Positions 3,821 through 61,863 of a stretch of 64,000 nt of DNA are shown here, one piece after another. Location: the NCBI GenBank assembly GCA_018901755.1, contig JAHIDZ010000015.1, positions 65,079-129,078 on the forward strand, read 5' to 3'. The notes beneath the pieces are model-generated. The model was not told where the DNA came from, searched no databases, and saw only the letters and a list, made by a program, of their open reading frames with translations. Each line of letters begins with the position of its first letter. Positions within the stretch are counted from its first letter, which is position 1. The position numbers and the translations under genes were made by a program. Source of the stretch: Nanobdellota archaeon. Lineage in GTDB: Archaea; Aenigmatarchaeota; Aenigmatarchaeia; Aenigmatarchaeales; Aenigmatarchaeaceae.

Positions 3821-4450
3821 ATGAAATGTGAGATAGATGTTAGGAGAGAAGACGATATCGGTTATACACTAGGTGTTATTGCTGGTGATGGGTTTATTGG
3901 AAAGAATACAGAAACGACAAGAATGATTATGCTATCTGTAAAAGATAAAGAATTTTGTGATAATTTTTCAAATAGTTTGTTTAATATATGCGGCCGAAAA
4001 TATAAGGTTAGTAGGGTTAATAATTATAGATATAGACAAGGTTATTGCTGGGTAACAAGATGTTGTATTCGACAAGTAGTTAACTTTTTTGAAAATTATG
4101 ATATTTATCAATTATCAGAAAATACAGATAAGATCAAGCTAGGTTTCTTAAGAGGTATGTTTGATGCAGAAGGTTGTAGCTTTTGTAAGCTTTATCCTAA
4201 AAGAGGAGGTTATTCAAGAACGGTTGCTGTTTTTAATAAAAATAAAAAATTACTTAATCTGTGTCAAGAATTATTGAATTCTTTCGAAATAAAAACAAGA
4301 AAATTTTCTAAAGATAAGGATGGTGTATATGCACTTCACCTGAGTCTTTCAAAAGAAAATCTAACGAAATTTAGGGATTTGATAAATTTTTCAATCCCGC
4401 GCAAAATTTCAAACTTGGAAACATGCTTAGAGAGTTATACGGGTGGTTAA
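3821..4450 (+). CDS. free-standing LAGLIDADG homing endonuclease-like protein
   Basis: Two LAGLIDADG motifs (LGVIAGDGFIG and LRGMFDAEGCS). The ATG abuts the S28e stop and the 3' end overlaps the L24e start. Confidence 0.8.
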   Translation: MKCEIDVRREDDIGYTLGVIAGDGFIGKNTETTRMIMLSVKDKEFCDNFSNSLFNICGRKYKVSRVNNYRYRQGYCWVTRCCIRQVVNFFENYDIYQLSENTDKIKLGFLRGMFDAEGCSFCKLYPKRGGYSRTVAVFNKNKKLLNLCQELLNSFEIKTRKFSKDKDGVYALHLSLSKENLTKFRDLINFSIPRKISNLETCLESYTGG

Positions 4451-4689: not shown

Positions 4690-5472
4690 ATGTTAAATCA
4701 AATCCTGTTATCTGATCTAAAGATGTTTGGTCTAAGCGAATACGAAGCGCGTGCGTATCTTGTTCTATCTATGTATGGTCCATCGTCAGCATCATTTATT
4801 TCTGAGCATAGTAAGATACCTTCTTCAAAAATATATGATATTTTGAATTCTTTGCGTTTCAAAGGACTATTAGATGCGTGTAATACAAAACCTAAAAGAT
4901 TCAAATTAATTGATCCGAAGTATGCGTTAACTAGTATTCTTGCTTCAAAAGAACTTATGATAGAAGAAATGAGAATTAAAACTAAAAATCTTTTAGAAAA
5001 ATTAAATCCGCCGCAGAATAGCATAAAATCAGAAATATGGCATTCTAGAGGAAAGAGACCGTTTTATGATAAAGCATGTGAGATATTGAATAAAACTAAA
5101 GAGCATGCTATAGCGACAACTAAAGACTTTTCACGTTATCCATTTCTAGATTATGAGTTTCTTGATGCAACTAAGAGAGGTGTTAAGATAAGGATACTTT
5201 GTACTTCGAATCTTACAGATGATGCTATCTCAAGAGCAACGTGGTATGTTAAAAATGGAGCTGATATTAGAGTTCTTCCAATGAAAACAAGCCCGATACT
5301 TGGTATAATAGATGACAGTGAAGTTGTCTTTAAGATTAATTCGCAAGTAGATTGTGATTTCATGTGGTCTAACAATGAGAATCTTATTAGTATAATGAAA
5401 AATTATTTTGAGAATTTGTGGTTAAAAGCGAGTCCTATCCAGCAATGCTTATCGGTTTTGCAAGAGAATTAG
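4690..5472 (+). CDS. TrmB-family transcriptional regulator
   Basis: N-terminal wHTH (LSEYEARAYLVLSMYGPSSASFISEHSKIPSSKIYDILNSL) and a TrmB-like C-terminal domain. Confidence 0.7.
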   Translation: MLNQILLSDLKMFGLSEYEARAYLVLSMYGPSSASFISEHSKIPSSKIYDILNSLRFKGLLDACNTKPKRFKLIDPKYALTSILASKELMIEEMRIKTKNLLEKLNPPQNSIKSEIWHSRGKRPFYDKACEILNKTKEHAIATTKDFSRYPFLDYEFLDATKRGVKIRILCTSNLTDDAISRATWYVKNGADIRVLPMKTSPILGIIDDSEVVFKINSQVDCDFMWSNNENLISIMKNYFENLWLKASPIQQCLSVLQEN

Positions 5473-6329: not shown

Positions 6330-7132
6330 TGTTTTGTTATCGTAATTTCCTTTCCGACAATATCAATAATAAGATATTTTCCTTCTGAACCAACATTTAT
6401 TATTTTAGTTTTTCCAAGCATCTCCATTCCAGCATTTTCATGCATATGGCCGCATAGAACAATCTTCGGTTCTGTTTTTTTAATATAATCTAATAGTATT
6501 TTACTTCCAGCATGTTTTCCTTGCCAACTTTGCGTTGCTGACGGATTCCGGACTTTATCCATTATTCCATAAGGAAGATCATGCATCATGACAATATCAG
6601 CTTTTCCCAATTCTTTTAGATGCTGCCTAGCAAGTTCTTGTTTTTTCTGTGCTCTTAATAGTGATACTTCATTTTCAGGTGTAAATCTCATTATCCAATC
6701 CGCGTCTTTGAAATAAGGAATACCGATAAAAGTAATGTCTTCAAATTTACTTTTTTTATAATTTATCAATTTTACATTATCAAATTTCATATCTGACAAT
6801 TTTGTAACATTAAGTTTGTATTTTTCTATTCTATCATCTATCGTATCTTCTACGTTTCCATGTATCCAATAGGTTGGAATTTTAGCTTTATCGAAATGTT
6901 TAAGTATTTTTTCTATTGTTGAGACGATTTCAAGAAATGCTTCTTCTACTTTTTCTTTTGGTAAAGTTTCTCCCCACGGCTTACTTTGTTTTATATCATA
7001 TTCAAAATAATATTTTCTTGCCAAGTTTGAACTTCCTAAGTCGCCAGGTATTAGAACACAATCAATATTATCTAAAGGAATATCAAATATTTTTCTATTT
7101 CCATGCGGATCTCCAATAACTAGAATCCTCAT
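6326..7132 (-). CDS. calcineurin-like metallophosphoesterase
   Basis: MRILVIGDPHGN...GDLG...GNVEDT...GHMHE metallophosphatase motifs. A 4-nt overlap with the upstream gene suggests translational coupling. Confidence 0.75.
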   Translation of the reverse strand: MRILVIGDPHGNRKIFDIPLDNIDCVLIPGDLGSSNLARKYYFEYDIKQSKPWGETLPKEKVEEAFLEIVSTIEKILKHFDKAKIPTYWIHGNVEDTIDDRIEKYKLNVTKLSDMKFDNVKLINYKKSKFEDITFIGIPYFKDADWIMRFTPENEVSLLRAQKKQELARQHLKELGKADIVMMHDLPYGIMDKVRNPSATQSWQGKHAGSKILLDYIKKTEPKIVLCGHMHENAGMEMLGKTKIINVGSEGKYLIIDIVGKEITITKH

Positions 7133-27163: not shown

Positions 27164-27251
27164 GTTATATAAATATTGTAATAACACTAACTTATTTGCG
27201 AGTAAACTCTACAAATCGAGTCATAATATAATATATGTATTTGAGACATAT

Positions 27252-27992
27252 ATGATACTTTCAATGGAAAGATTTAATGAAAAAATTATTATTGAAAATA
27301 GTATGCAGAGAAAGCTATTTCTAGAAATTAAGAAAATGGAAGGTTTGAGTCAAAGGAAGCTTGCAAAACGGTTAAAAATAAGTCGAAACAGCATTAAAAA
27401 CTGGGCAAGTGAGGATAGAAAATTACCGAAATTTATTTTCGAGGAAATATTAGAAAAGTTTCCATGGGCATCGGAATATAGAAATTATGTACATGGCACC
27501 CTTCCTAGAAACTGGGCTCAGATTAAGGGTGGTAAGATTCGAAGTAAGATGAAGAATAATTTAACAAATGATGATAGAGTAAAGGGATTTAGGCTGGGCA
27601 GATTGGGGATTAAAAGAAAAACAGTTGGGCCAAATGGCGAACTGATGTTTAATGATGGCGAAAAAAGAATTGCTGAGGAGTTGATACGAAATAAAATTAA
27701 CTATGTGTATGAGCCGGTAATTTTACTTGGAGAAAATTATGCTATCCCAGATTTCATTGTGAATAATACTGTTATCGAAAGATGTGGTTATCGCGATTGG
27801 AAGCCGTATTGGTCGAATATTAAGAGAAAGATTAAAAGATTAAAGAAATATGAAAATTATAAAATCATTATTTTAGTCCCATCAAAAAATTTTGATATGG
27901 TAGTTAAAATTTTAAAAAATGTCAGAGGCATCACTATATTGAAGGAAGAAAATTTGGAAGCACTTTTAGATATTTTGAAAATATACCATTGA
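27252..27992 (+). CDS. HTH fused to a PD-(D/E)xK (DUF559/Vsr-like) endonuclease domain; homing-endonuclease-like
   Basis: Its N-terminal HTH (LFLEIKKMEGLSQRKLAKRLKISRNSIKNWASEDRKLPKFIFEEILEKF) aligns with the N-termini of the LAGLIDADG genes in this window. The C-terminus IAEELIRNKINYVYEPVIL...IPDFIV...IERCG resembles the DUF559 nuclease core. Confidence 0.55.
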   Translation: MILSMERFNEKIIIENSMQRKLFLEIKKMEGLSQRKLAKRLKISRNSIKNWASEDRKLPKFIFEEILEKFPWASEYRNYVHGTLPRNWAQIKGGKIRSKMKNNLTNDDRVKGFRLGRLGIKRKTVGPNGELMFNDGEKRIAEELIRNKINYVYEPVILLGENYAIPDFIVNNTVIERCGYRDWKPYWSNIKRKIKRLKKYENYKIIILVPSKNFDMVVKILKNVRGITILKEENLEALLDILKIYH

Positions 27993-28063: not shown

Positions 28064-28166
28064 GGGTCCATAAGTTAAATTTTAATTTAACTGGAATGCT
28101 CAGTTTGGCTAGAGCACCTGCCTCTTAAGCAGGGGGTCGCGGGTTCAAATCCCGTTGGACCCACCA
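28064..28166 (+). tRNA. tRNA-Lys (anticodon CUU) with a 25-nt intron between positions 9 and 10; CCA encoded
   Basis: Acceptor GGGUCCA/UGGACCC, D-stem GCUC/GAGC, anticodon arm CCUGC-CUCUUAA-GCAGG and T-arm GCGGG-UUCAAAU-CCCGU. The intron at 28073..28097 (AGUUAAAUUUUAAUUUAACUGGAAU) forms an 8-bp hairpin. Confidence 0.78.
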
Positions 28167-40607: not shown

Positions 40608-42068
40608 ATGGTAAAGGAGCTAAAGTACCCTAAAGAGATAGAGGAAATACGAAAACTCGGTTTTAATCCTTATGCTCATAAATTTGATAAAGATACAAAC
40701 ATTTCTCAACTTATAGAAAAATATAGTGGATTTAAGGCAAATGATAAAGATGAGAAAATTAAATATAAGGTTGCTGGAAGAATACGTTCAGTAAGAGGAC
40801 ATGGTAAATTATTTTTCATGGATTTAGAAGATTTTTCCGGAAGAATACAATTATACATAGATGCTTCTAATATTTCTGATAAAGAGTTGAAATTAGTAAA
40901 TTTATTACATGCAGGAGATATCGTTGGTGTAGAAGGCGGAGTGTTAAAAACAGCACGAGGCGAGTTAAGTCTTTTAGTTAAGAAAATAACAATTTTAACA
41001 AGATCTTTACAAGTATTACCGAAAGAATGGTTCGGACTTAAAGATGAAGAACTGAAGTATAGGAAAAGATATTTAGACATGCTGATGAATAAAGAGACAA
41101 GAGATATCTTTGTAAAGAAAGGAATATTTTGGGATTCGTTTAGAGAATTTTTGAAATCTAAAGGATTCATAGAAGTAGAGACACCGGTGTTTGAAAATAA
41201 AACAGGCGGTGCTGATGCCCGTCCTTTTGTAACGCATCATAATGCTTTAGATATTGATGTTTATCTTAGAATATGCGCCGGAGAATTATGGCAAAAAAGA
41301 TTAATGGTTGCCGGTTTCGAGAAAACATTTGAAATAGGACGTGTCTTTAGAAATGAAGGAATTGATTTAGAACATGCTCAAGATTATACTCTTTTAGAAT
41401 TTTATTGGAGCTATGCTGATTACGAGATGGCTATGAAACTTGTAGAAGAAATGTATAAATATGTGATTAAGAAAACATTCGGTACATTGAAATTTGAAAT
41501 TGGTGAACATAATGTTGATTTTTCAAAGAAATGGGAAAGATATGATTATACTGAACAAGTAAAGAAACACACTGGTATAGATATTAATAAAGCTACTTTG
41601 AAAGATATTGAAAAGAAACTAAAAGAATTGAAAATAAATTATGATAAGAAAGGATTCAACATGACACGTGCTATTGATAATCTCTGGAAATATTGTAGAA
41701 AAAAATTATCAGGACCAGGTTTCTTAATTAATGAACCATTAGCAGTATCACCTTTAGCTAAGAAAAGAGACAATAATCCAAATGTTGTAGAAAGGTTCCA
41801 TCCTATAATTGCTGGAACTGAAATGGGTAATGGTTATTCTGAATTAAATGATCCTATAGATCAGGCAGCTAGGTTTGAAGAACAGAACGAAATGAGAGAA
41901 GCTGGCGATGAAGAAGCACAAATGTATGATAAGGAGTTTGTAGAAGCTTTAGAATATGGTATGCCACCAACAGCTGGTTTTGGTGTATCTGAAAGATTGT
42001 TTAGTTTATTGTTGAATAAATCAATTAGAGAATGTCAGGCGTTCCCATTACTAAGACCAGAACAATAA
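40608..42068 (+). CDS. lysS: lysyl-tRNA synthetase, class II
   Basis: N-terminal OB anticodon-binding fold (KVAGRIRSVRGHGKLFFMDLED). Class II motif 1 (FIEVETP), motif 2 (FRNEGID..H..DYTLLEFY) and motif 3 (GMPPTAGFGVSERL). Confidence 0.9.
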   Translation: MVKELKYPKEIEEIRKLGFNPYAHKFDKDTNISQLIEKYSGFKANDKDEKIKYKVAGRIRSVRGHGKLFFMDLEDFSGRIQLYIDASNISDKELKLVNLLHAGDIVGVEGGVLKTARGELSLLVKKITILTRSLQVLPKEWFGLKDEELKYRKRYLDMLMNKETRDIFVKKGIFWDSFREFLKSKGFIEVETPVFENKTGGADARPFVTHHNALDIDVYLRICAGELWQKRLMVAGFEKTFEIGRVFRNEGIDLEHAQDYTLLEFYWSYADYEMAMKLVEEMYKYVIKKTFGTLKFEIGEHNVDFSKKWERYDYTEQVKKHTGIDINKATLKDIEKKLKELKINYDKKGFNMTRAIDNLWKYCRKKLSGPGFLINEPLAVSPLAKKRDNNPNVVERFHPIIAGTEMGNGYSELNDPIDQAARFEEQNEMREAGDEEAQMYDKEFVEALEYGMPPTAGFGVSERLFSLLLNKSIRECQAFPLLRPEQ

Positions 42069-42798
42069 TTATTTACCAAACTTCTTTTTCTGGGCAAAAT
42101 ACCATTTCATTATTTTATCAAATTCTTTTTTAGAGAAATCTGGCCATAATGTGTTGGAAAAGTATATTTCAGCATAAGCTGATTGAAACAATAAAAAGTT
42201 TGATAATCGATGATAGCCGCCTGTTCTTATTACGAGGTCTACCGGTTTTTTAACAAGCAAGAATTTATTAAAGGCATCTCCAGCGATTGGTATTTTTTTT
42301 ATTCCTCTTTTCAATAGGTTATTCATAGAAGCGATTATTTCAAATTGACCACCATATGCAAGAAGAATATTTAATACACTTTTTGTATAATTTTTAGTAT
42401 TAATCATAACTTCTTTTGCAGTTTTTTTAACATCTGAACGCCATAAATTATGATTACCAAGAACATTAACTTTTATTTGATCCTTTTTAAATTCTTTGTT
42501 TTTTGTTAATTTTCTAAGATTGTCCATGTAGACTTTCCATAGATAATTTAATTCCTGCTTATCTCTTCCTAGATTTTCGGTTGATAGAGCATATACGCTA
42601 ATCATTTTTATTTCAGGATATTTTTTAGACCATTTCAAGAAATTTTCTAAAGTTTTTGCTCCAGCCTGATGGCCTTGTAAAGTCGCTTTATTTTCTTTCT
42701 GCGCCCATCTGCGATTTCCATCGGGTTTATTGTTTGCTCAACAGAAGCTAAGCAAATATCAATGCCACATGGATACCGCTTGATCCATCTTTGTTCAT
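42069..42798 (-). pseudogene. uppS: undecaprenyl/di-trans,poly-cis-prenyl diphosphate synthase (cis-prenyltransferase) disrupted near the 5' end by a roughly 28-31 nt frameshifting insertion
   Basis: The main ORF (TTG start at 42638) carries DLVIRTGGYHRLSNFLLFQSAYAEIYF and YALSTEN. In-frame upstream lies PDGNRRWAQKENKATLQGHQAGAK, the catalytic DGNRRWA motif, preceded immediately by TGA. An N-terminal fragment MNKDGSSGIHVALIFA (42798..42751) sits in another frame and ends at TAG. Confidence 0.55.
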
Positions 42799-42806
42799 AA
42801 CATATA

Positions 42807-43616
42807 TCACCATCTAAATTTTGAAGGTTGCAGTCTGCATATCATTCTTTGTGTATTTACCTTTTTATAATAACATTCATATTCTATATCTTTAAGCGTA
42901 TTATTGTAGAAATCTGTCAGTGATTTATTATGCAAAAGTATCGAAAACTCATTTCTTTTATGATATATGCATAATTTATGTGAATAATTATTTTTTAATA
43001 GTTGAACAATTTGTTTGGCGAGTATTTCGTTTTTTAAAGAAGATGCCACTAAAATATTATCTTTCAATTTAATTTTACCATTGCTTCCTTCATCAATAAA
43101 ACATGCTCTTAAGATGGAGTTTTTCCAGCTTGGATTTTTTAGAGCAAGTGCAATTATTTTTTTAGGAAGTTTCCTTCTTTCAAACCCATAATGATTTATT
43201 AGTAAATTTGATGCTACAGAAGATAGCCCGTATGATTTTACACCGTTTTGATTGCTATGGTATAGAGCGGTGCCCATTCCAATTTTTTTAACTAAATCAG
43301 AAAACATTTCTTGTTCCATGTTGTTGCGCGTTTCATAATAAAAGGAGTTTCCCCTTCCTACGGTGCCATCAAATAAAGTATGTGCTATTATTTCGGCGTG
43401 TTCTGGCATTTCTTTATACGGAAATTTATTAAGTATAAAATTTATTTTCGGGTAGTTAAATATGATTATGTGCGATTCTATAGATTTTTTTGATATTTTA
43501 AGAACGTCAATCCATTTAAGGAATATGTTAATCGTTGGGTGTCTATGACCATTTTCATAGTGAGATATGCGTCCTTTTTTAATTTGTATTAATTTTGCTA
43601 TGGCTTTCTGTGTCAA
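42807..43616 (-). CDS. HTH (XRE-like) fused to a LAGLIDADG homing endonuclease-like domain
   Basis: N-terminal QKAIAKLIQIKKGRISHYENG HTH. LAGLIDADG motifs IIAHTLFDGTVG and LRACFIDEGSNG. Confidence 0.75.
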   Translation of the reverse strand: MTQKAIAKLIQIKKGRISHYENGHRHPTINIFLKWIDVLKISKKSIESHIIIFNYPKINFILNKFPYKEMPEHAEIIAHTLFDGTVGRGNSFYYETRNNMEQEMFSDLVKKIGMGTALYHSNQNGVKSYGLSSVASNLLINHYGFERRKLPKKIIALALKNPSWKNSILRACFIDEGSNGKIKLKDNILVASSLKNEILAKQIVQLLKNNYSHKLCIYHKRNEFSILLHNKSLTDFYNNTLKDIEYECYYKKVNTQRMICRLQPSKFRW

Positions 43617-43740
43617 TTTCAGTTCATTTTTTTTAGAAACCAGAAGTTTTTTAAAATATGGCGTTATTATAACCCTGCTTCGTTGAGAGGCTTCCCACCA
43701 ATGAATTAAATTATTGTTGGTTGGTATTAAATCACCATTA

Positions 43741-43860
43741 TGGTGCGGGAGGCAGGATTTGAACCTGCGAATGAACTAATCAACTGGGTCCTAAGCTTCG
43801 CTCAAGAATAAACGTATTTAATCTTGTCCAGCGCCTTAGACCTAGCTTGGCAACTCCCGC
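43741..43860 (-). tRNA. tRNA-Leu (anticodon UAG) with a 31-nt intron at the anticodon-stem position 30/31 (or 31/32); CCA encoded
   Basis: Minus-strand read GCGGGAG-UU-GCC...GGC-G-CUGG[ACAAGAUUAAAUACGUUUAUUCUUGAGCGAA]G-CUUAGGA-CCCAG-UUGAUUAGUUCAUUC(variable arm)-GCAGG-UUCAAAU-CCUGC-CUCCCGC-A-CCA. Removing the intron gives a perfect CUGGG/CCCAG anticodon stem with G37. The D-arm and long variable arm match archaeal tRNA-Leu. Confidence 0.7.
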
Positions 43861-43904
43861 ATGTAAGATATTATTAAACATATTAGTTTATATAAATTTA
43901 AGAA

Positions 43905-44360
43905 TTAGATGTTTTCTGTCCTATCGCCAATTTCTTTCAATTCACTTTCCATTTGGTTGATATTTCCATCAATTGGTCTACTATTGTCTTTTATGAAAGG
44001 TTCGAACGATTGTGGTCTTACTAGTTCCTGATCTAATTGGTTAAGAAGACCTGAGAATTCGTCAAGATTTTTCTTTTCATTAGCTTCTATTTGTGATGCT
44101 ATTTTTTCGACTTCTCCTTCTAGTCTAGCTAAAGCACTAAGATTACTTAGGATTGTTTTTAATTTTTGAACTCTTTGAAGAACTTCTTTATATTTATCTA
44201 TTTTGATGTATAGTGGAGCGAAGTTTTTAGGTTCTTGCATTGAAGGCATTTCTATTTTTCTAATTTCTGGTATTTCTGTAGGTCTAGTAAATACAGGTTG
44301 GCTTGGTTCCACTGCATCTTTTATTTCTTGCACATCGTCTTTCTTTTTATTCCAAAACAT
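43905..44360 (-). CDS. hypothetical coiled-coil protein
   Basis: ORF only. Confidence 0.45.
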   Translation of the reverse strand: MFWNKKKDDVQEIKDAVEPSQPVFTRPTEIPEIRKIEMPSMQEPKNFAPLYIKIDKYKEVLQRVQKLKTILSNLSALARLEGEVEKIASQIEANEKKNLDEFSGLLNQLDQELVRPQSFEPFIKDNSRPIDGNINQMESELKEIGDRTENI

Positions 44361-44480
44361 TCAATCATCCTTTTAATTTATTCAAACTCAGAGTATTTAA
44401 TGATTATGGTGCACTGTGCGAGATTCACCACCAAGGGTGAAAACGTGCTTTAAACTGAAGCAACAACATTTCATTAATTT

Positions 44481-45224
44481 ATGAATAACATTGATAAAAA
44501 TAAGGTATTACGTCTGTATAAAGATGGGTATACATTAGCACAGATTTCTATAAACACTGGACTAAGTAAAACTACAATTTATTATCATACGCGGAAGCAA
44601 TTTGGGAGAAAATATAAGCTCATAACGATTTCAGATAACAGAGAGAAAATTGGTGAATTCATTGGTGTTTTTACAGGAGACGGGTATTTCATTAAGGATA
44701 AGATAGGACATTACAAAACAATGATAACTGTTTCGATTAAAGCATCTGAATACATAAAGCACTTAGATACGATTTTTACAGAACTGTTTTCTAAATCCCC
44801 ACTTATTATCAAAAGACTTAAATATAATACAGTCGAACTTCGATACGATTCTAAAGAAATATACGAATTGATAAAAAACTATTTGTTTTGGGATGGAAAG
44901 AAACATAACTCAGTTAGACTGCTGGTAATTGAGCACGATAAGGAATTTCTTACAGGATTCTTAAGAGGTTGCCTAGATACAGATGGTCATGTTCATAAGA
45001 ATTATAAAAGAATATGCTTTTCTACCACATCTCTATTTTTGGCGAACCAGCTTTCTTCTATTTTAACTAATCTTGGTTTTGAGAACAAAATTCTAATAGC
45101 AAGAGATAAGAGATTGAATAGAAAATTGTTATATAATGTAAGATTGTTGGGAGAAGAAGCTATTAGATTGATTAAAACAATTAAACCAGGAAATCCTTCA
45201 AAGAGAAGAGATTGGTGCGAGTGA
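44481..45224 (+). CDS. HTH fused to a LAGLIDADG homing endonuclease-like domain
   Basis: N-terminal HTH (YKDGYTLAQISINTGLSKTTIYYHTRKQ). LAGLIDADG motifs IGVFTGDGYF and LRGCLDTDGHV. The last 9 nt overlap the acceptor stem of tRNA-Gly on the opposite strand. Confidence 0.8.
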   Translation: MNNIDKNKVLRLYKDGYTLAQISINTGLSKTTIYYHTRKQFGRKYKLITISDNREKIGEFIGVFTGDGYFIKDKIGHYKTMITVSIKASEYIKHLDTIFTELFSKSPLIIKRLKYNTVELRYDSKEIYELIKNYLFWDGKKHNSVRLLVIEHDKEFLTGFLRGCLDTDGHVHKNYKRICFSTTSLFLANQLSSILTNLGFENKILIARDKRLNRKLLYNVRLLGEEAIRLIKTIKPGNPSKRRDWCE

Positions 45225-45303
45225 GGGGATTTGAACCCCTGTTGTAAACTTTTTGCGAAATTCTTGGCAAGCTTACGTACTGGCCAGACTATACGACACT
45301 CGC
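45213..45303 (-). tRNA. tRNA with a 14-nt intron at the canonical 37/38 position, most likely tRNA-Gly (anticodon GCC); CCA encoded
   Basis: Minus-strand read GCGAGUG-UC-GUAU-AGUCUGGCCA-GUAC-G-UAAGC-UUGCCA[AGAAUUUCGCAAAA]A-GUUUA-CAAC-AGGGG-UUCAAAU-CCCCU-CACUCGC-A-CCA. UUGC of the loop can pair with GCAA in the intron, giving a BHB-like helix flanked by 3-nt bulges. Confidence 0.62.
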
Positions 45304-55304: not shown

Positions 55305-56384
55305 GCCCGTTATTATTTTAAGATATGGCAGTTGAGTTTTTATGCACCTTTTTGAGCAATGCAACTCTTGCGCTAATTTACCATGTGTTTCATTATTTTC
55401 AGCTCTATCTTCTTTGCTTTTACCGAGTATCATGATTTTTTCTGGAGGCTTATATGGTGTGTATGAATTGTCTTTTCTTATTAGTGTCATAGATACCATC
55501 ATGTTTTTCATATATAATAACATTCTGTAGTTTTTTCCAACATAAACTTTTTCTCTAAACATATCTGCTTTACTAAGTATATCAAATGCGAATGCAATTT
55601 CTTCAGGTTTTTTATATTCGTTTGTAATATTTTGTTCCATCCACCAAAAGATTTCTTCAATATCTTTATCACAAGAATCAATTGCTTTTGAGGCATCATT
55701 GAGACTATTAGATTTGAATATTATTCTAATAGCTTCGAAAATGTTTATACCTCTTTCTCTGAATCCAATTATTTCAGTATGTGTTACTTTTTTTCTATTA
55801 GTTATTATTATTTGTAGATCATTTATTGCAGATCTTAAATCTCCGCCAGAACTTTCTGCTATTCTTACAATTATATCATTGTCTACTTCTACACCTTCTT
55901 TAGCACATATTTCTCTTAGTTTTTTACCAATTGATAATGTTCCAATTCTTCTAAATTGAATTAATGTGCAGTAGCCTCTTAATGTTCTGAGACCTTTATC
56001 ATATGCATCGTTAGCAGTAAGTATTACAGGAAATTTGCTGGTTTTAATAAGATTTATTATTTCAGTAACAGTTCCTTTGTCAGTATAATTATCAATTTCA
56101 TCTACAACTATTATTCTTTTTGCACCAAGCAGAGACATCATTGTTGAAGATGATTTTATTTTTTTTACTTCTTCTATTTCAGATGCGTGAACTTCGGTTA
56201 TATTTATTTTATTATCAATTGATATTACCTGTGATATAATTGTTTTTCCAATACCAGGTGCACCATAAAGAAGAATCGCTTTTCCAGTTTTGAATGTTTT
56301 AATATATTCTACAATATTTGCCAAAGCTGTAGAATTTCCAACAATGTCTGATACTTTTTTTGGTTTATATCTGTTTACTAACAT
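55296..56384 (-). CDS. rfcL: replication factor C large subunit
   Basis: NRYKPKKVSDIVGN, Walker A GAPGIGKT, Walker B VVDEID and SRC-like region. The start overlaps the stop of the upstream LAGLIDADG gene by 7 nt. Confidence 0.8.
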   Translation of the reverse strand: MLVNRYKPKKVSDIVGNSTALANIVEYIKTFKTGKAILLYGAPGIGKTIISQVISIDNKINITEVHASEIEEVKKIKSSSTMMSLLGAKRIIVVDEIDNYTDKGTVTEIINLIKTSKFPVILTANDAYDKGLRTLRGYCTLIQFRRIGTLSIGKKLREICAKEGVEVDNDIIVRIAESSGGDLRSAINDLQIIITNRKKVTHTEIIGFRERGINIFEAIRIIFKSNSLNDASKAIDSCDKDIEEIFWWMEQNITNEYKKPEEIAFAFDILSKADMFREKVYVGKNYRMLLYMKNMMVSMTLIRKDNSYTPYKPPEKIMILGKSKEDRAENNETHGKLAQELHCSKRCIKTQLPYLKIITGLD

Positions 56385-57373
56385 CGTGATACCCCTACTA
56401 TTGCTCTCATATTATTTGCTCTTTTAATACGGTTTGGATGTTGCAATGGCGTATTGTTTAAAAATGTAGGAATAGAATCAACCTTTAAAGAAAAATCGTA
56501 TGTGATACCAAATTCCTTTACCCTTGTAGATATCTTTCCAGATTGCATATTCAAGCGTTCGGTAAATAATTTTAATTCTTCTAGAAACATTCTGTCTGCT
56601 TGGGCGAATATAATTTTTTTATCGGGTTCATATATACAACCATCGGCATCGAAAAACCCTGCGATAAAGGCATTTTTGATTTCTTTTGAACCATTATATA
56701 TAATATCCGGTATTTTTAGTTGTCCTTTCTTTTTACCCATTGGTATACCGCATATTTTATTAAGAAAAATAAACAACACCTTAGACTGTATGTAAATTTC
56801 AAAGCATTTGGAATTTGTTTTATATATATTAGCTTTCAAATCAAATTGATTATTGATAAATTTGTTGAATTTATTAGCAAATTTTACCGTGTCTGAAGCT
56901 ATTTCAATCATGTATTTGAAATTTCCAGTTCTCATTTTTGGTTTCCATATATCTACAAGACAACCATCACCTATGATATAACCGATAATGTATGACAGTT
57001 CTTCTGTAATTTCTTTTGGAAGTTTTACTATTTTACCCTTAGCCACAGAAAAATACTCATTTTCTTTGAATGCAGATTCAATTATTTTGTTTTTTTCATC
57101 TTCTGATTTTCTGCAAACTCCTTTCCAAATATTTATTAGTTGAAAGAATTTCGATATGGGTATTGGTGAAGTTCCGTTAATCCAATTTGAAACTGTTCTC
57201 CTCGGAACGCCAAAAGACATCGTTGTAAGTTTAATAATTCCCTTCCCATGCTCCTTCTTTATTTCAGAATATAAATTTTTAGTTATGTTACTTATATCAC
57301 ACATTCTAATTTCATCATTTCTATCGTAATTAGACAAAACCATAAAATAGTTTGGGATTTTAATAATTATCAC
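56378..57373 (-). CDS. HTH fused to a LAGLIDADG homing endonuclease-like domain; GTG start
   Basis: N-terminal HTH-like region (GVPRRTVSNWINGTSPIPISKFFQLI). LAGLIDADG motifs IIGYIIGDGCLV and FIAGFFDADGCIY. It sits between rfcS and rfcL. Confidence 0.8.
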   Translation of the reverse strand: MIIIKIPNYFMVLSNYDRNDEIRMCDISNITKNLYSEIKKEHGKGIIKLTTMSFGVPRRTVSNWINGTSPIPISKFFQLINIWKGVCRKSEDEKNKIIESAFKENEYFSVAKGKIVKLPKEITEELSYIIGYIIGDGCLVDIWKPKMRTGNFKYMIEIASDTVKFANKFNKFINNQFDLKANIYKTNSKCFEIYIQSKVLFIFLNKICGIPMGKKKGQLKIPDIIYNGSKEIKNAFIAGFFDADGCIYEPDKKIIFAQADRMFLEELKLFTERLNMQSGKISTRVKEFGITYDFSLKVDSIPTFLNNTPLQHPNRIKRANNMRAIVGVSRC

Positions 57374-61786: not shown

Positions 61787-61863
61787 GCCTCGGTAGTTCA
61801 GTCGGTACGAATGCTCGCTTGGTAAGTGAGAGGTCGTGGGTTCAATTCCCACCCGAGGCTCCA
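61787..61863 (+). tRNA. tRNA-Thr (anticodon GGU), no intron, CCA encoded
   Basis: GCCUCGG-UA-GUUC-AGUCGGUAC-GAAU-G-CUCGC-UUGGUAA-GUGAG-AGGUC-GUGGG-UUCAAUU-CCCAC-CCGAGGC-U-CCA. Confidence 0.9.

Follow-up and report, generated by a model that had tools for sequence, protein, structure and literature searches.

Why do two free-standing endonuclease-like genes lie beside two intron-containing tRNA genes in one short segment of an archaeal chromosome? We addressed this question in a stretch of 64,000 nt (contig JAHIDZ010000015.1, positions 65,079 to 129,078; hereafter the window) from a DPANN archaeal metagenome-assembled genome with 31.7% GC. The two genes, termed P1 and P2, lie at 42.7-45.3 kb; the P2 protein is NCBI KJ697_03285 ('Nanoarchaeota archaeon'), and the nearest relatives of the window are labelled Aenigmatarchaeota. 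A sequence-only reading of the locus had offered two possibilities, namely that the endonucleases target tRNA genes, or that tRNA introns and endonucleases are historically linked, for example through a former intron-encoded endonuclease that moved outside its intron. The explanation that we consider probable treats the two genes separately: P2 would belong on tRNA genes, P1 would belong at the gene for undecaprenyl-diphosphate synthase (UPPS), and the bulge-helix-bulge (BHB) introns beside P1 would behave as in collaborative homing. The association of P2 with tRNA genes and that of P1 with UPPS introns are real and non-random, and represent a new form of free-standing homing-endonuclease biology.

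The locus was compared with loci of relatives (L001, L176 and so on), which were gathered via lysyl-tRNA synthetase (LysRS), via homologues of P1 and P2, and via the neighbouring HTH_45 gene. The order in L176 is HTH45–tRNA-Gly(GCC)–p155–tRNA-Leu(TAG)–UPPS, with neither an endonuclease gene nor an intron. The same order continues into LysRS in L177/178, where P1 and P2 are both missing and tRNA-Gly has a different intron of 20 nt. P2 is present and P1 absent in L001; P1 is also absent in L007 and L060, for which there is no contig covering the tRNA-Gly site. Judged from these gene orders, the ancestral array was most probably HTH45–tRNA-Gly–p15x–tRNA-Leu–UPPS–LysRS, relative to which the window has gained P2, P1 and three introns. 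The tRNA part of the array in the window reads as follows.

45213..45303 (-), tRNA-Gly(GCC), here called allele A, CCA encoded (Rfam, 48.8 bits)
45251..45264, canonical BHB intron of tRNA-Gly, 14 nt, position 37/38 (ARAGORN intron mode)
43905..44360 (-), p151, host gene between both tRNA genes, with orthologues in L001, L007, L060, L176 and L177/178
43741..43860 (-), type-II tRNA-Leu(TAG), CCA encoded (Rfam, 37.7 bits)
43797..43827, non-canonical BHB intron of tRNA-Leu, 31 nt, position 30/31 (alignment to the intron-less L001 gene)

The gene p151 belongs to neither cassette. We find it reasonably likely that 42.7-45.3 kb is this ancestral array after the entry of two cassettes, unrelated to each other, that each bring a free-standing homing-endonuclease gene of the LAGLIDADG type.

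The presence of two free-standing genes beside two intron-containing tRNA genes was thus confirmed, with introns of 31 nt in tRNA-Leu and 14 nt in tRNA-Gly. An intron was accepted as BHB when a central helix of 4 bp stood between two bulges of 3 nt each, the predicted cut on either strand falling behind the second nucleotide of the bulge, and this structure was found in the tRNA-Leu, tRNA-Gly and UPPS introns. Read from the sequence, the central helix is TTGC/GCAA with bulges CA|A and AA|A in tRNA-Gly, and CGCT/AGCG with bulges GG|A and AA|G in tRNA-Leu. When spliced in silico, tRNA-Gly is 77 nt long and called Gly(gcc), and tRNA-Leu is 89 nt long and called Leu(tag); the intron-less tRNA-Leu orthologues of L001, L007, L060, L176 and L178 match the predicted junction CTGG|GCTTAGG exactly. 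Several ARAGORN calls were set aside in view of U33/R37, position 26, the variable arm and the orthologues. These were a Trp call for the tRNA-Gly of the window in default mode (intron mode gave Gly(GCC)), a Pro call for tRNA-Leu in intron mode (the orthologue junction and the spliced call both gave Leu(TAG)), an Ala call for the tRNA-Gly of L177/178 and a Glu call for the tRNA of L002.

The P2 cassette consists of the intact tRNA-Gly, the endonuclease gene and a tRNA remnant.

44481..45224 (+), P2, free-standing gene with HTH_7 and a double-motif LAGLIDADG region (Pfam)
44407..44426 (-), remnant of the 3' end of a tRNA-Gly allele 'B', from T-loop to CCA, 20 nt, at the far edge of the P2 cassette

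P2 matched Pfam LAGLIDADG_3 with an E-value of 3.9e-14 and 53 bits against a cut-off of 22.5, as well as HTH_7, and showed weak WhiA-type Pfam matches. Its family profile matches the V-ATPase intein endonuclease and I-AniI, and the motifs G66-D67-G68 and D166/D168-G169 are invariant among 7 homologues. The TGA of P2 (45222..45224) and its last codons lie opposite the acceptor 3' strand of tRNA-Gly, an overlap of 9 nt, or 12 nt with CCA; the sequence-only reading had rightly placed the end of the P2 open reading frame (ORF) inside the tRNA gene. At the orthologous site P2 is present in the window, L001 and L173 and absent in L176, L177/178 and L174, a polymorphism at an otherwise conserved site of the kind that a mobile gene produces.

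In a collection of 5.8 billion protein sequences, the P2 family comprises only 7 protein clusters. Every member seen in context faces a tRNA gene in convergent orientation, and its stop codon either touches the 3' end of that tRNA or falls within it. The homologues share 34-76% identity, and the overlap ranges from 0 nt (abutting) to 41 nt across four unrelated neighbourhoods:

window, L001 and L173, P2 next to tRNA-Gly(GCC), overlap 12 nt
L004/L005, P2 next to tRNA-Arg(GCG) with a 14-nt intron, overlap about 20 nt
L002/L003, P2 next to tRNA-Gly(UCC) with two introns, overlap 0 nt (abutting)
L172, P2 next to a tRNA-Gly(UCC)-like gene, overlap about 41 nt

Because the abutment recurs in four genomic neighbourhoods, the adjacency of P2 and tRNA is more than chance, the explanation to which the sequence-only reading would have fallen back. 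The tRNA-Gly(UCC) genes beside P2 homologues, at 6745..6862 (-) in L002 and 4466..~4572 (-) in L172, were missed by Rfam and ARAGORN. The L002 gene has introns of 14 nt at 37/38 and of 29 nt in the T arm; the L172 gene, for which the reading is by eye alone, has a T-arm insertion of ~31 nt with no strict BHB fit. What looked like another P2-like copy in L006 proved to be a truncated lactamase ORF of equal length.

On the side of P2 away from the intact tRNA, remnants of tRNA 3' ends (16–28 nt) were found in three of the four genomic contexts. The remnant in the window shows 19/20 identities to the intact tRNA-Gly of L178 (blastn-short) and is followed by the original downstream spacer, which is homologous to the spacer after the tRNA in L177/178 by alignment. 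The same allele-B remnant occurs in L173, L001 and L174. In L001 the other end of allele B has survived as well, its first 26 nt standing immediately before the intact tRNA-Gly. The tRNA 3' end of L002 recurs upstream of the P2 homologue as an exact copy of 20 nt, and L004/5 has a tRNA remnant of at least 16 nt. With such remnants at its flank, the P2 cassette sits inside a former tRNA gene. The remnant (allele B) and the intact tRNA (allele A) of the window lineage differ in the acceptor and T stems, from which it appears that the resident tRNA-Gly allele B was replaced by allele A in this lineage. Only ~0.8-1.2 kb separate tRNA and remnant, and in three independent contexts the LAGLIDADG gene is the sole conserved gene there; L001 also has ~350 nt of non-coding DNA in this interval. 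No tyrosine or serine integrase gene was found between tRNA and remnant, where the LAGLIDADG gene is the only gene. Altogether, it is fairly probable from its position that P2 belongs to a small family targeting tRNA genes.

The intron of tRNA-Gly is a separate matter. P2 and the intron occur together in the window and L173, P2 without the intron in L001, the intron without P2 in L174/175 and L177/178, and neither in L176. As all four combinations exist, the tRNA-Gly intron does not track P2 and is unrelated to it, and the suggested historical link between tRNA intron and endonuclease fails for tRNA-Gly. For tRNA-Leu that suggestion comes down to a single locus: its intron occurs only in the window, where P1 adjoins it, and is absent in five loci lacking P1. 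This intron may be a co-converted hitchhiker, a suggestion drawn from that one locus.

The features around P1 are the following.

42807..~43730 (-), P1, free-standing gene with HTH_3 and a predicted I-DmoI-like LAGLIDADG region, annotated TTG start at 43616
43731..43738 (-), left one of the two 8-bp direct repeats (ATGGTGAT) on either side of the P1 insert
42806..42813 (-), right one of these repeats (ATGGTGAT), holding the TGA of P1 (42807..42809) in overlap with the ATG of UPPS (42811..42813)
42069..42813 (-), UPPS, split gene with exon 1 at 42758..42813 and exon 2 at 42069..42726 (Pfam Prenyltransf, E 2e-49)
42727..42757 (-), BHB intron of UPPS, 31 nt, just before the PDGNRRWA codons, a 31-column gap in the alignment with L001

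The ORF 42807..43616 had been read as an HTH-LAGLIDADG gene. Its helix-turn-helix part was recovered by Pfam (HTH_3 only, with no match to the Pfam LAGLIDADG models), and a PDB profile search returned helix-turn-helix proteins only; the LAGLIDADG part comes solely from an AlphaFold2 (AF2) model. This model, of moderate confidence (pLDDT, the per-residue confidence score, 72.7), matched I-DmoI, PI-SceI, I-SceI and I-Tsp061I in a Foldseek search of the PDB, with E-values of 3e-5 for the TliVMA intein endonuclease and 1e-4 for I-DmoI (TM-score 0.67 normalised to I-DmoI). According to the model, P1 would have a LAGLIDADG fold with two alpha-beta-beta-alpha-beta-beta-alpha halves. The acidic residues in LFD125-G126-T and ID217-E218-G219-S are invariant in 5 homologues, and comparison with the P2 family by hhalign gave a weak match (probability 5.6%, P 0.007 over the second motif). 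P1 and P2 are both presumably active nucleases. The P1 family comprises five clusters in the same protein collection.

A gap of 124 nt between P1 and tRNA-Leu had been described. The P1 frame is in fact open upstream to 43775, inside the tRNA gene, and homologues place the N-terminus 'IHWWEAS' at ~43706, upstream of the annotated TTG, which leaves a real gap of at most ~35 nt. In L167, L168 and L170/171, P1 closes with KF(K/R)W*, right where UPPS begins; the contig of L169 breaks off shortly after this ending. What lies upstream of P1 varies, the neighbours being a radical SAM gene, a gene of 177 aa and an M23 peptidase, and tRNA-Leu is found there only in the window. P1 is absent in 9 related loci, and in relatives lacking it tRNA-Leu ends ~11 nt before UPPS. 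The empty site of L007 has a single copy of ATGGTGAT, while L169 is arranged like the window. P1 thus adjoins tRNA-Leu in the window only because tRNA-Leu ancestrally lies ~11 nt upstream of UPPS, and P1 appears to have been inserted into this ~11-nt spacer. From this comparison the fixed partner of P1 would be the UPPS 5' end and not tRNA-Leu, whose adjacency looks like a by-product. The proposal that the endonucleases target tRNA genes is consequently borne out for P2, all of whose members lie on tRNA 3' ends with remnants in three of four contexts, and not for P1, whose partner is UPPS. In L007, the closest relative (LysRS 92% identical), UPPS itself is without an in-frame canonical start and has ATGGTG one frame off; the contig coverage is 2.8x, and an assembly error is possible at this UPPS start (5140..5170).

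UPPS of the window reads MVIYVMNKDGSSGIHVALI, then 31 nt with stop codons and a frame shift, then PDGNRRWAQ.... In nine distinct relatives without P1 the gene is uninterrupted, and the spliced UPPS of the window (714 nt, 237 aa; ...GIHVALIPDGNRRWA...) agrees with them. The intron-less 5' region, of the type seen in L007, L176 and L178, is ...GCAATAATACCTGACGG(G/T)AA..., and the predicted spliced junction of the window is GCATTGAT|ACCCGAT. The exon ATTG pairs with CAAT of the intron, with bulges AT|A and AA|A and an inner helix of 10 bp, and the minimum-free-energy fold of the intron consists of a helix, a 3-nt bulge, 4 bp and a 3-nt bulge. Judging by these structures, the UPPS introns are presumably spliced in vivo, where EndA and RtcB would act; an EndA of the epsilon2 or (alpha-beta)2 type would be expected if one enzyme handles this mRNA intron as well as the introns at positions 9/10 and 30/31. 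Further UPPS introns were found in other loci with P1:

L167, 30 nt at the same site, central helix CTTG/CAAG, inner helix 9 bp
L170/L171, 28 nt at the same site and a second intron of 31 nt located 12 nt downstream

The second intron of L170/L171 splits PDGN|RRWA and has the central helix ATGG/CCAT, bulges AA|A and AA|A and an inner helix of 10 bp. All intron sites lie 50-70 nt from the P1 gene, within the PDGNRRWA codons. Among the introns at the first site (window, L167, L170), 42/42 base-pair cells are standard pairs, compared with 33-50% paired in slid controls, and 6/500 shuffles reach the observed value. Four pairs have changed on both sides, including the exon-intron pair, a covariation seen in three sequences and therefore of low statistical power. 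A scan of the whole window for BHB motifs, with and without an ORF-restoration filter, gave 400 matches versus ~340 in shuffles; the UPPS intron was recovered, and at 32% GC the scan is too noisy for the detection of further mRNA introns. The UPPS exons flanking the intron are complementary to each other, ATCCAT (Ile-His codons) pairing with ATGGA (Asp-Gly codons); this pairing, between 42758..42790 and 42700..42726 (-), provides the outer helix of the BHB both for the window and for L170, and the conserved UPPS coding sequence may predispose this site to a BHB intron.

The UPPS introns go together with P1. They are present in three of the four P1-bearing loci (window, L167 and L170/171; none in L168) versus 0/9 loci without P1, for which Fisher's test gives p ~0.014 on loci that are phylogenetically non-independent. 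The hosts with both P1 and the intron are only distantly related, their LysRS being 47-70% identical, and closer relatives of the window (92% and 82%) are without both, indicating that P1 and the intron were gained or lost together.

The gene arrangement, the empty sites, the remnants of tRNA genes and the BHB structures with their covariation were observed directly; the homing mechanism that follows is a proposal. Collaborative or trans homing begins when a free-standing endonuclease cleaves an allele without the intron at the point where the intron would lie; carriers are protected by their intron, which is co-converted with the endonuclease gene (PMC2790892, PMC6083498). At UPPS, the conserved DNA of the PDGNRRWA codons would be the cleavage site of P1. 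A BHB intron would split this site and render its carrier immune and, lying ~50-60 nt from the P1 gene, would be co-converted with it, while the host splicing endonuclease and ligase would remove it from the mRNA. The two introns of L170 within 13 bp fit repeated selection to break one site of ~20 bp. P2 would cut the resident tRNA gene in the T-arm/3' region, and during repair the P2 gene would be copied along with a tRNA allele that resists cutting, in the manner of intronless homing; for the window lineage, the P2 cassette would have brought its own tRNA-Gly allele A, replacing the resident B. The target sites of both enzymes are predictions from position, and it is by analogy with the phage systems that we infer that the intron confers immunity and moves with P1. 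More tentatively, and with somewhat less than even confidence, we propose that short BHB introns may be gained, kept and spread in general by splitting the sites of neighbouring free-standing LAGLIDADG endonucleases, possibly in tRNA-Leu too.

Several observations weigh against this explanation. In L174, allele A and the B remnant are both present, yet the place of P2 is taken by a 98-aa ORF, and a P2 vestige was looked for there and not found; replacement of B by A need not, then, be the work of P2. P2 is accompanied by an intron-less tRNA-Gly in L001. Likewise, L168 has P1 without a UPPS intron; in favour of the explanation, its exon still has CTTG, the pairing partner of the intron in other loci, which was found in none of the P1-less alleles. 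Since the loci are non-independent, one intron gain on the P1 haplotype could possibly give the 3/4 versus 0/9 distribution. Sliding identity across LysRS-UPPS between the window and L007, L060, L001, L178 and L168, computed to locate a co-conversion tract, declines gradually in the direction of the UPPS 5' end, with no clear break, and the 8-bp direct repeat around P1 is not typical of homing. Finally, P1 has no in-frame canonical start in the window or in L169, its closest homologue (83% identical): no in-frame ATG, GTG or TTG lies upstream of IHWWEAS in 43700..43742 (-) of the window and 460..520 of L169, and ATGGTGATTT is retained in both, displaced by one frame and with a stop behind it. 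The gene may start at a non-canonical codon (ATA or ATT), contain a frameshift or be in decay. The P1 versions of L167 and L170 have clear ATG starts.

The spacers around tRNA-Gly and tRNA-Leu are general insertion hotspots, filled in various relatives by unrelated ORFs of 94-238 aa:

L174, 2084..2644 (-), 186 aa
L174, 2842..3138 (+), 98 aa
L007, 5363..6079 (+), 238 aa
L060, 1577..1891 (-), 104 aa
L001, 5341..5625 (+), 94 aa

Pfam assigned no families to these spacer ORFs of L001, L007, L060 and L174. The locus could accordingly be a coincidence, in which tRNA flanks and short spacers are permissive, the lineage is independently rich in BHB introns and the endonucleases have no specific relation to either. 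The occurrence of the tRNA-Gly intron with and without P2, and the introns in three of the four tRNAs of the window, are as expected from such a hotspot. It does not account for the fact that all P2 homologues seen in context end on a tRNA 3' end in four unrelated neighbourhoods, with a remnant upstream in three of the four, nor for the position of the P1 homologues at the UPPS start, nor for the confinement of UPPS introns to P1 haplotypes, one locus having two within 13 bp. We therefore regard coincidence as unlikely, although it is the strongest of the rival explanations. Less probable again is an origin of the P2 cassette from an integrase-type element, a virus or plasmid that would have had its attachment site in the tRNA 3' end and have decayed to a scar, with the LAGLIDADG gene as a leftover passenger. 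A full tRNA and a displaced partial 3' copy form the classic attL/attR footprint, and this arrangement is present in direct orientation in the window, L001, L173, L002 and L004. However, the interval spans little more than the LAGLIDADG gene, with no integrase, and the stem differences between remnant B and intact A, together with the 5' remnant of B in L001, look like replacement rather than duplication of an attachment site.

Both proteins have an N-terminal helix-turn-helix, P1 is translationally coupled to UPPS, and P2 has its weak WhiA-type matches, all of which would suit domesticated WhiA-like regulators of the adjacent tRNA and UPPS genes that are not nucleases. Patchy presence in close relatives with clean empty sites, insertion footprints, invariant metal-binding acidic residues of both motifs in both families, and the tiny size of these families (5 clusters for P1 and 7 for P2) make a regulatory role very improbable. 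The sequence-only idea of endonuclease genes once inside tRNA introns and later moved out found no support and is the least credible of all. It is true that I-DmoI, which is among the best structural matches of P1, and other LAGLIDADG enzymes are encoded by BHB introns of archaeal rRNA, but the introns here are of 14-31 nt, P2 lies 3' of the tRNA in convergent orientation, the conserved partner of P1 is UPPS, and no ORF-bearing tRNA intron occurs in any relative examined; the real association of intron and endonuclease is that of the UPPS BHB introns with P1. None of these rivals explains both the recurrent P2/tRNA architecture and the co-occurrence of P1 and UPPS introns, and homing by P2 on tRNA genes and by P1 at UPPS is the explanation that we retain.

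Among known systems, SegF, SegG and the other seg/mob enzymes of phage T4 are free-standing endonucleases of intronless homing, some of them within phage tRNA gene clusters. P2 resembles them in lying between conserved genes, and its mobility would co-convert a resistant neighbour allele (A for B). It differs in being LAGLIDADG and not GIY-YIG or HNH, in overlapping the tRNA 3' end, in leaving a tRNA 3' remnant on the other side of the cassette, and in residing on an archaeal chromosome. With the integrase elements of the SSV and pNOB8 types P2 shares the position at the 3' part of a tRNA and the displaced partial 3' copy; unlike them, it has no integrase and a single LAGLIDADG gene, and in the window lineage the whole tRNA was apparently replaced. 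The P1 model shares fold, double-motif monomer, acidic residues and archaeal origin with I-DmoI, I-Tsp061I and I-PorI, whereas P1 and P2 are free-standing, have an extra N-terminal helix-turn-helix and lie outside rRNA introns.

For P1 the closest parallels are the trans homing of T4 mobE/I-TevIII with the nrdB intron (PMC2790892) and the collaborative homing of F-CphI with the cyanophage psbA group I intron (PMC6083498). As in these, an intron without an ORF interrupts the gene next to the endonuclease gene at DNA encoding a conserved motif, and intron and endonuclease gene co-occur on the same haplotypes. In contrast to the self-splicing group I introns of the phages, the UPPS introns are BHB introns of 28-31 nt that would be removed by host enzymes, the host is a cellular DPANN archaeon, the enzyme combines HTH_3 and a predicted LAGLIDADG fold, and cleavage at the intron insertion site is a prediction. 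The crenarchaeal cbf5 pre-mRNA has a BHB intron of 16-44 nt that is gained and lost among relatives (PMC2738675). Like it, the UPPS introns interrupt a protein-coding gene and are too short for a nuclease ORF; the gene, the phylum (DPANN, from Aenigmatarchaeota/Nanoarchaeota metagenome-assembled genomes), the occurrence of two introns 12 nt apart in one locus and the link to an adjacent endonuclease gene, of which none is reported for cbf5, are different. In the literature searched, protein-coding BHB introns were limited to crenarchaeal cbf5, with no nuclease link (PMC2738675), and nothing closer was found.

Elsewhere in the window, Rfam identified four tRNAs in total, three of which have introns, and there are five LAGLIDADG genes within the 64 kb, counting P1, P2 and three more free-standing ORFs.

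3821..4447 (+), free-standing LAGLIDADG ORF (Pfam LAGLIDADG_3)
56381..57373 (-), free-standing LAGLIDADG ORF (Pfam LAGLIDADG_1)
63392..>64000 (+), free-standing LAGLIDADG ORF (Pfam LAGLIDADG_2)
28064..28166 (+), tRNA-Lys(CTT) with a 25-nt BHB intron at 28073..28097, position 9/10, TCCA TA|A ... TGGA AT|G
27249..27989 (+), P3, HTH_3/HTH_19 protein directly upstream of tRNA-Lys
61787..61863, tRNA-Thr, intron-less, with no HTH-nuclease-like neighbour
40608..42068 (+), class II LysRS

One of the three additional LAGLIDADG ORFs is wedged between two replication factor C genes. The Rfam match of tRNA-Lys(CTT) covers model positions 10-63 only. The C-terminal half of P3 has a weak PHROG 'endonuclease' match and is PD-(D/E)xK-like by eye; P3 gave no sequence match in the PDB, and its single-sequence AF2 model (pLDDT 49) was too poor for a structure search. 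All three intron-bearing tRNAs of the window thus adjoin an HTH-nuclease-like gene, and the intron-less tRNA-Thr is without one. Outside its own clade, the class II LysRS is nearest to that of Patescibacteria (CPR bacteria), with 55-60% identity, which suggests inter-domain transfer.

Short archaeal BHB introns are too small to encode anything and, to our knowledge, possess no machinery for their own mobility. For the question of how they arise and move, the locus offers further BHB introns of a protein-coding gene, now from a DPANN lineage, natural alleles that have or lack the intron and the endonuclease gene, and a specific candidate driver in the adjacent LAGLIDADG gene. The P2 family would provide a compact route for a homing endonuclease onto tRNA genes, overlapping their 3' end and bringing a replacement allele; it bears on tRNA annotation and on tRNA gene disruption as a conflict with mobile elements, and is possibly a source of new rare-cutting enzymes. 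If the proposed role of P1 is true, it would supply a concrete mechanism for the gain and mobility of BHB introns, those of mRNAs included, and thus a BHB version of collaborative homing.

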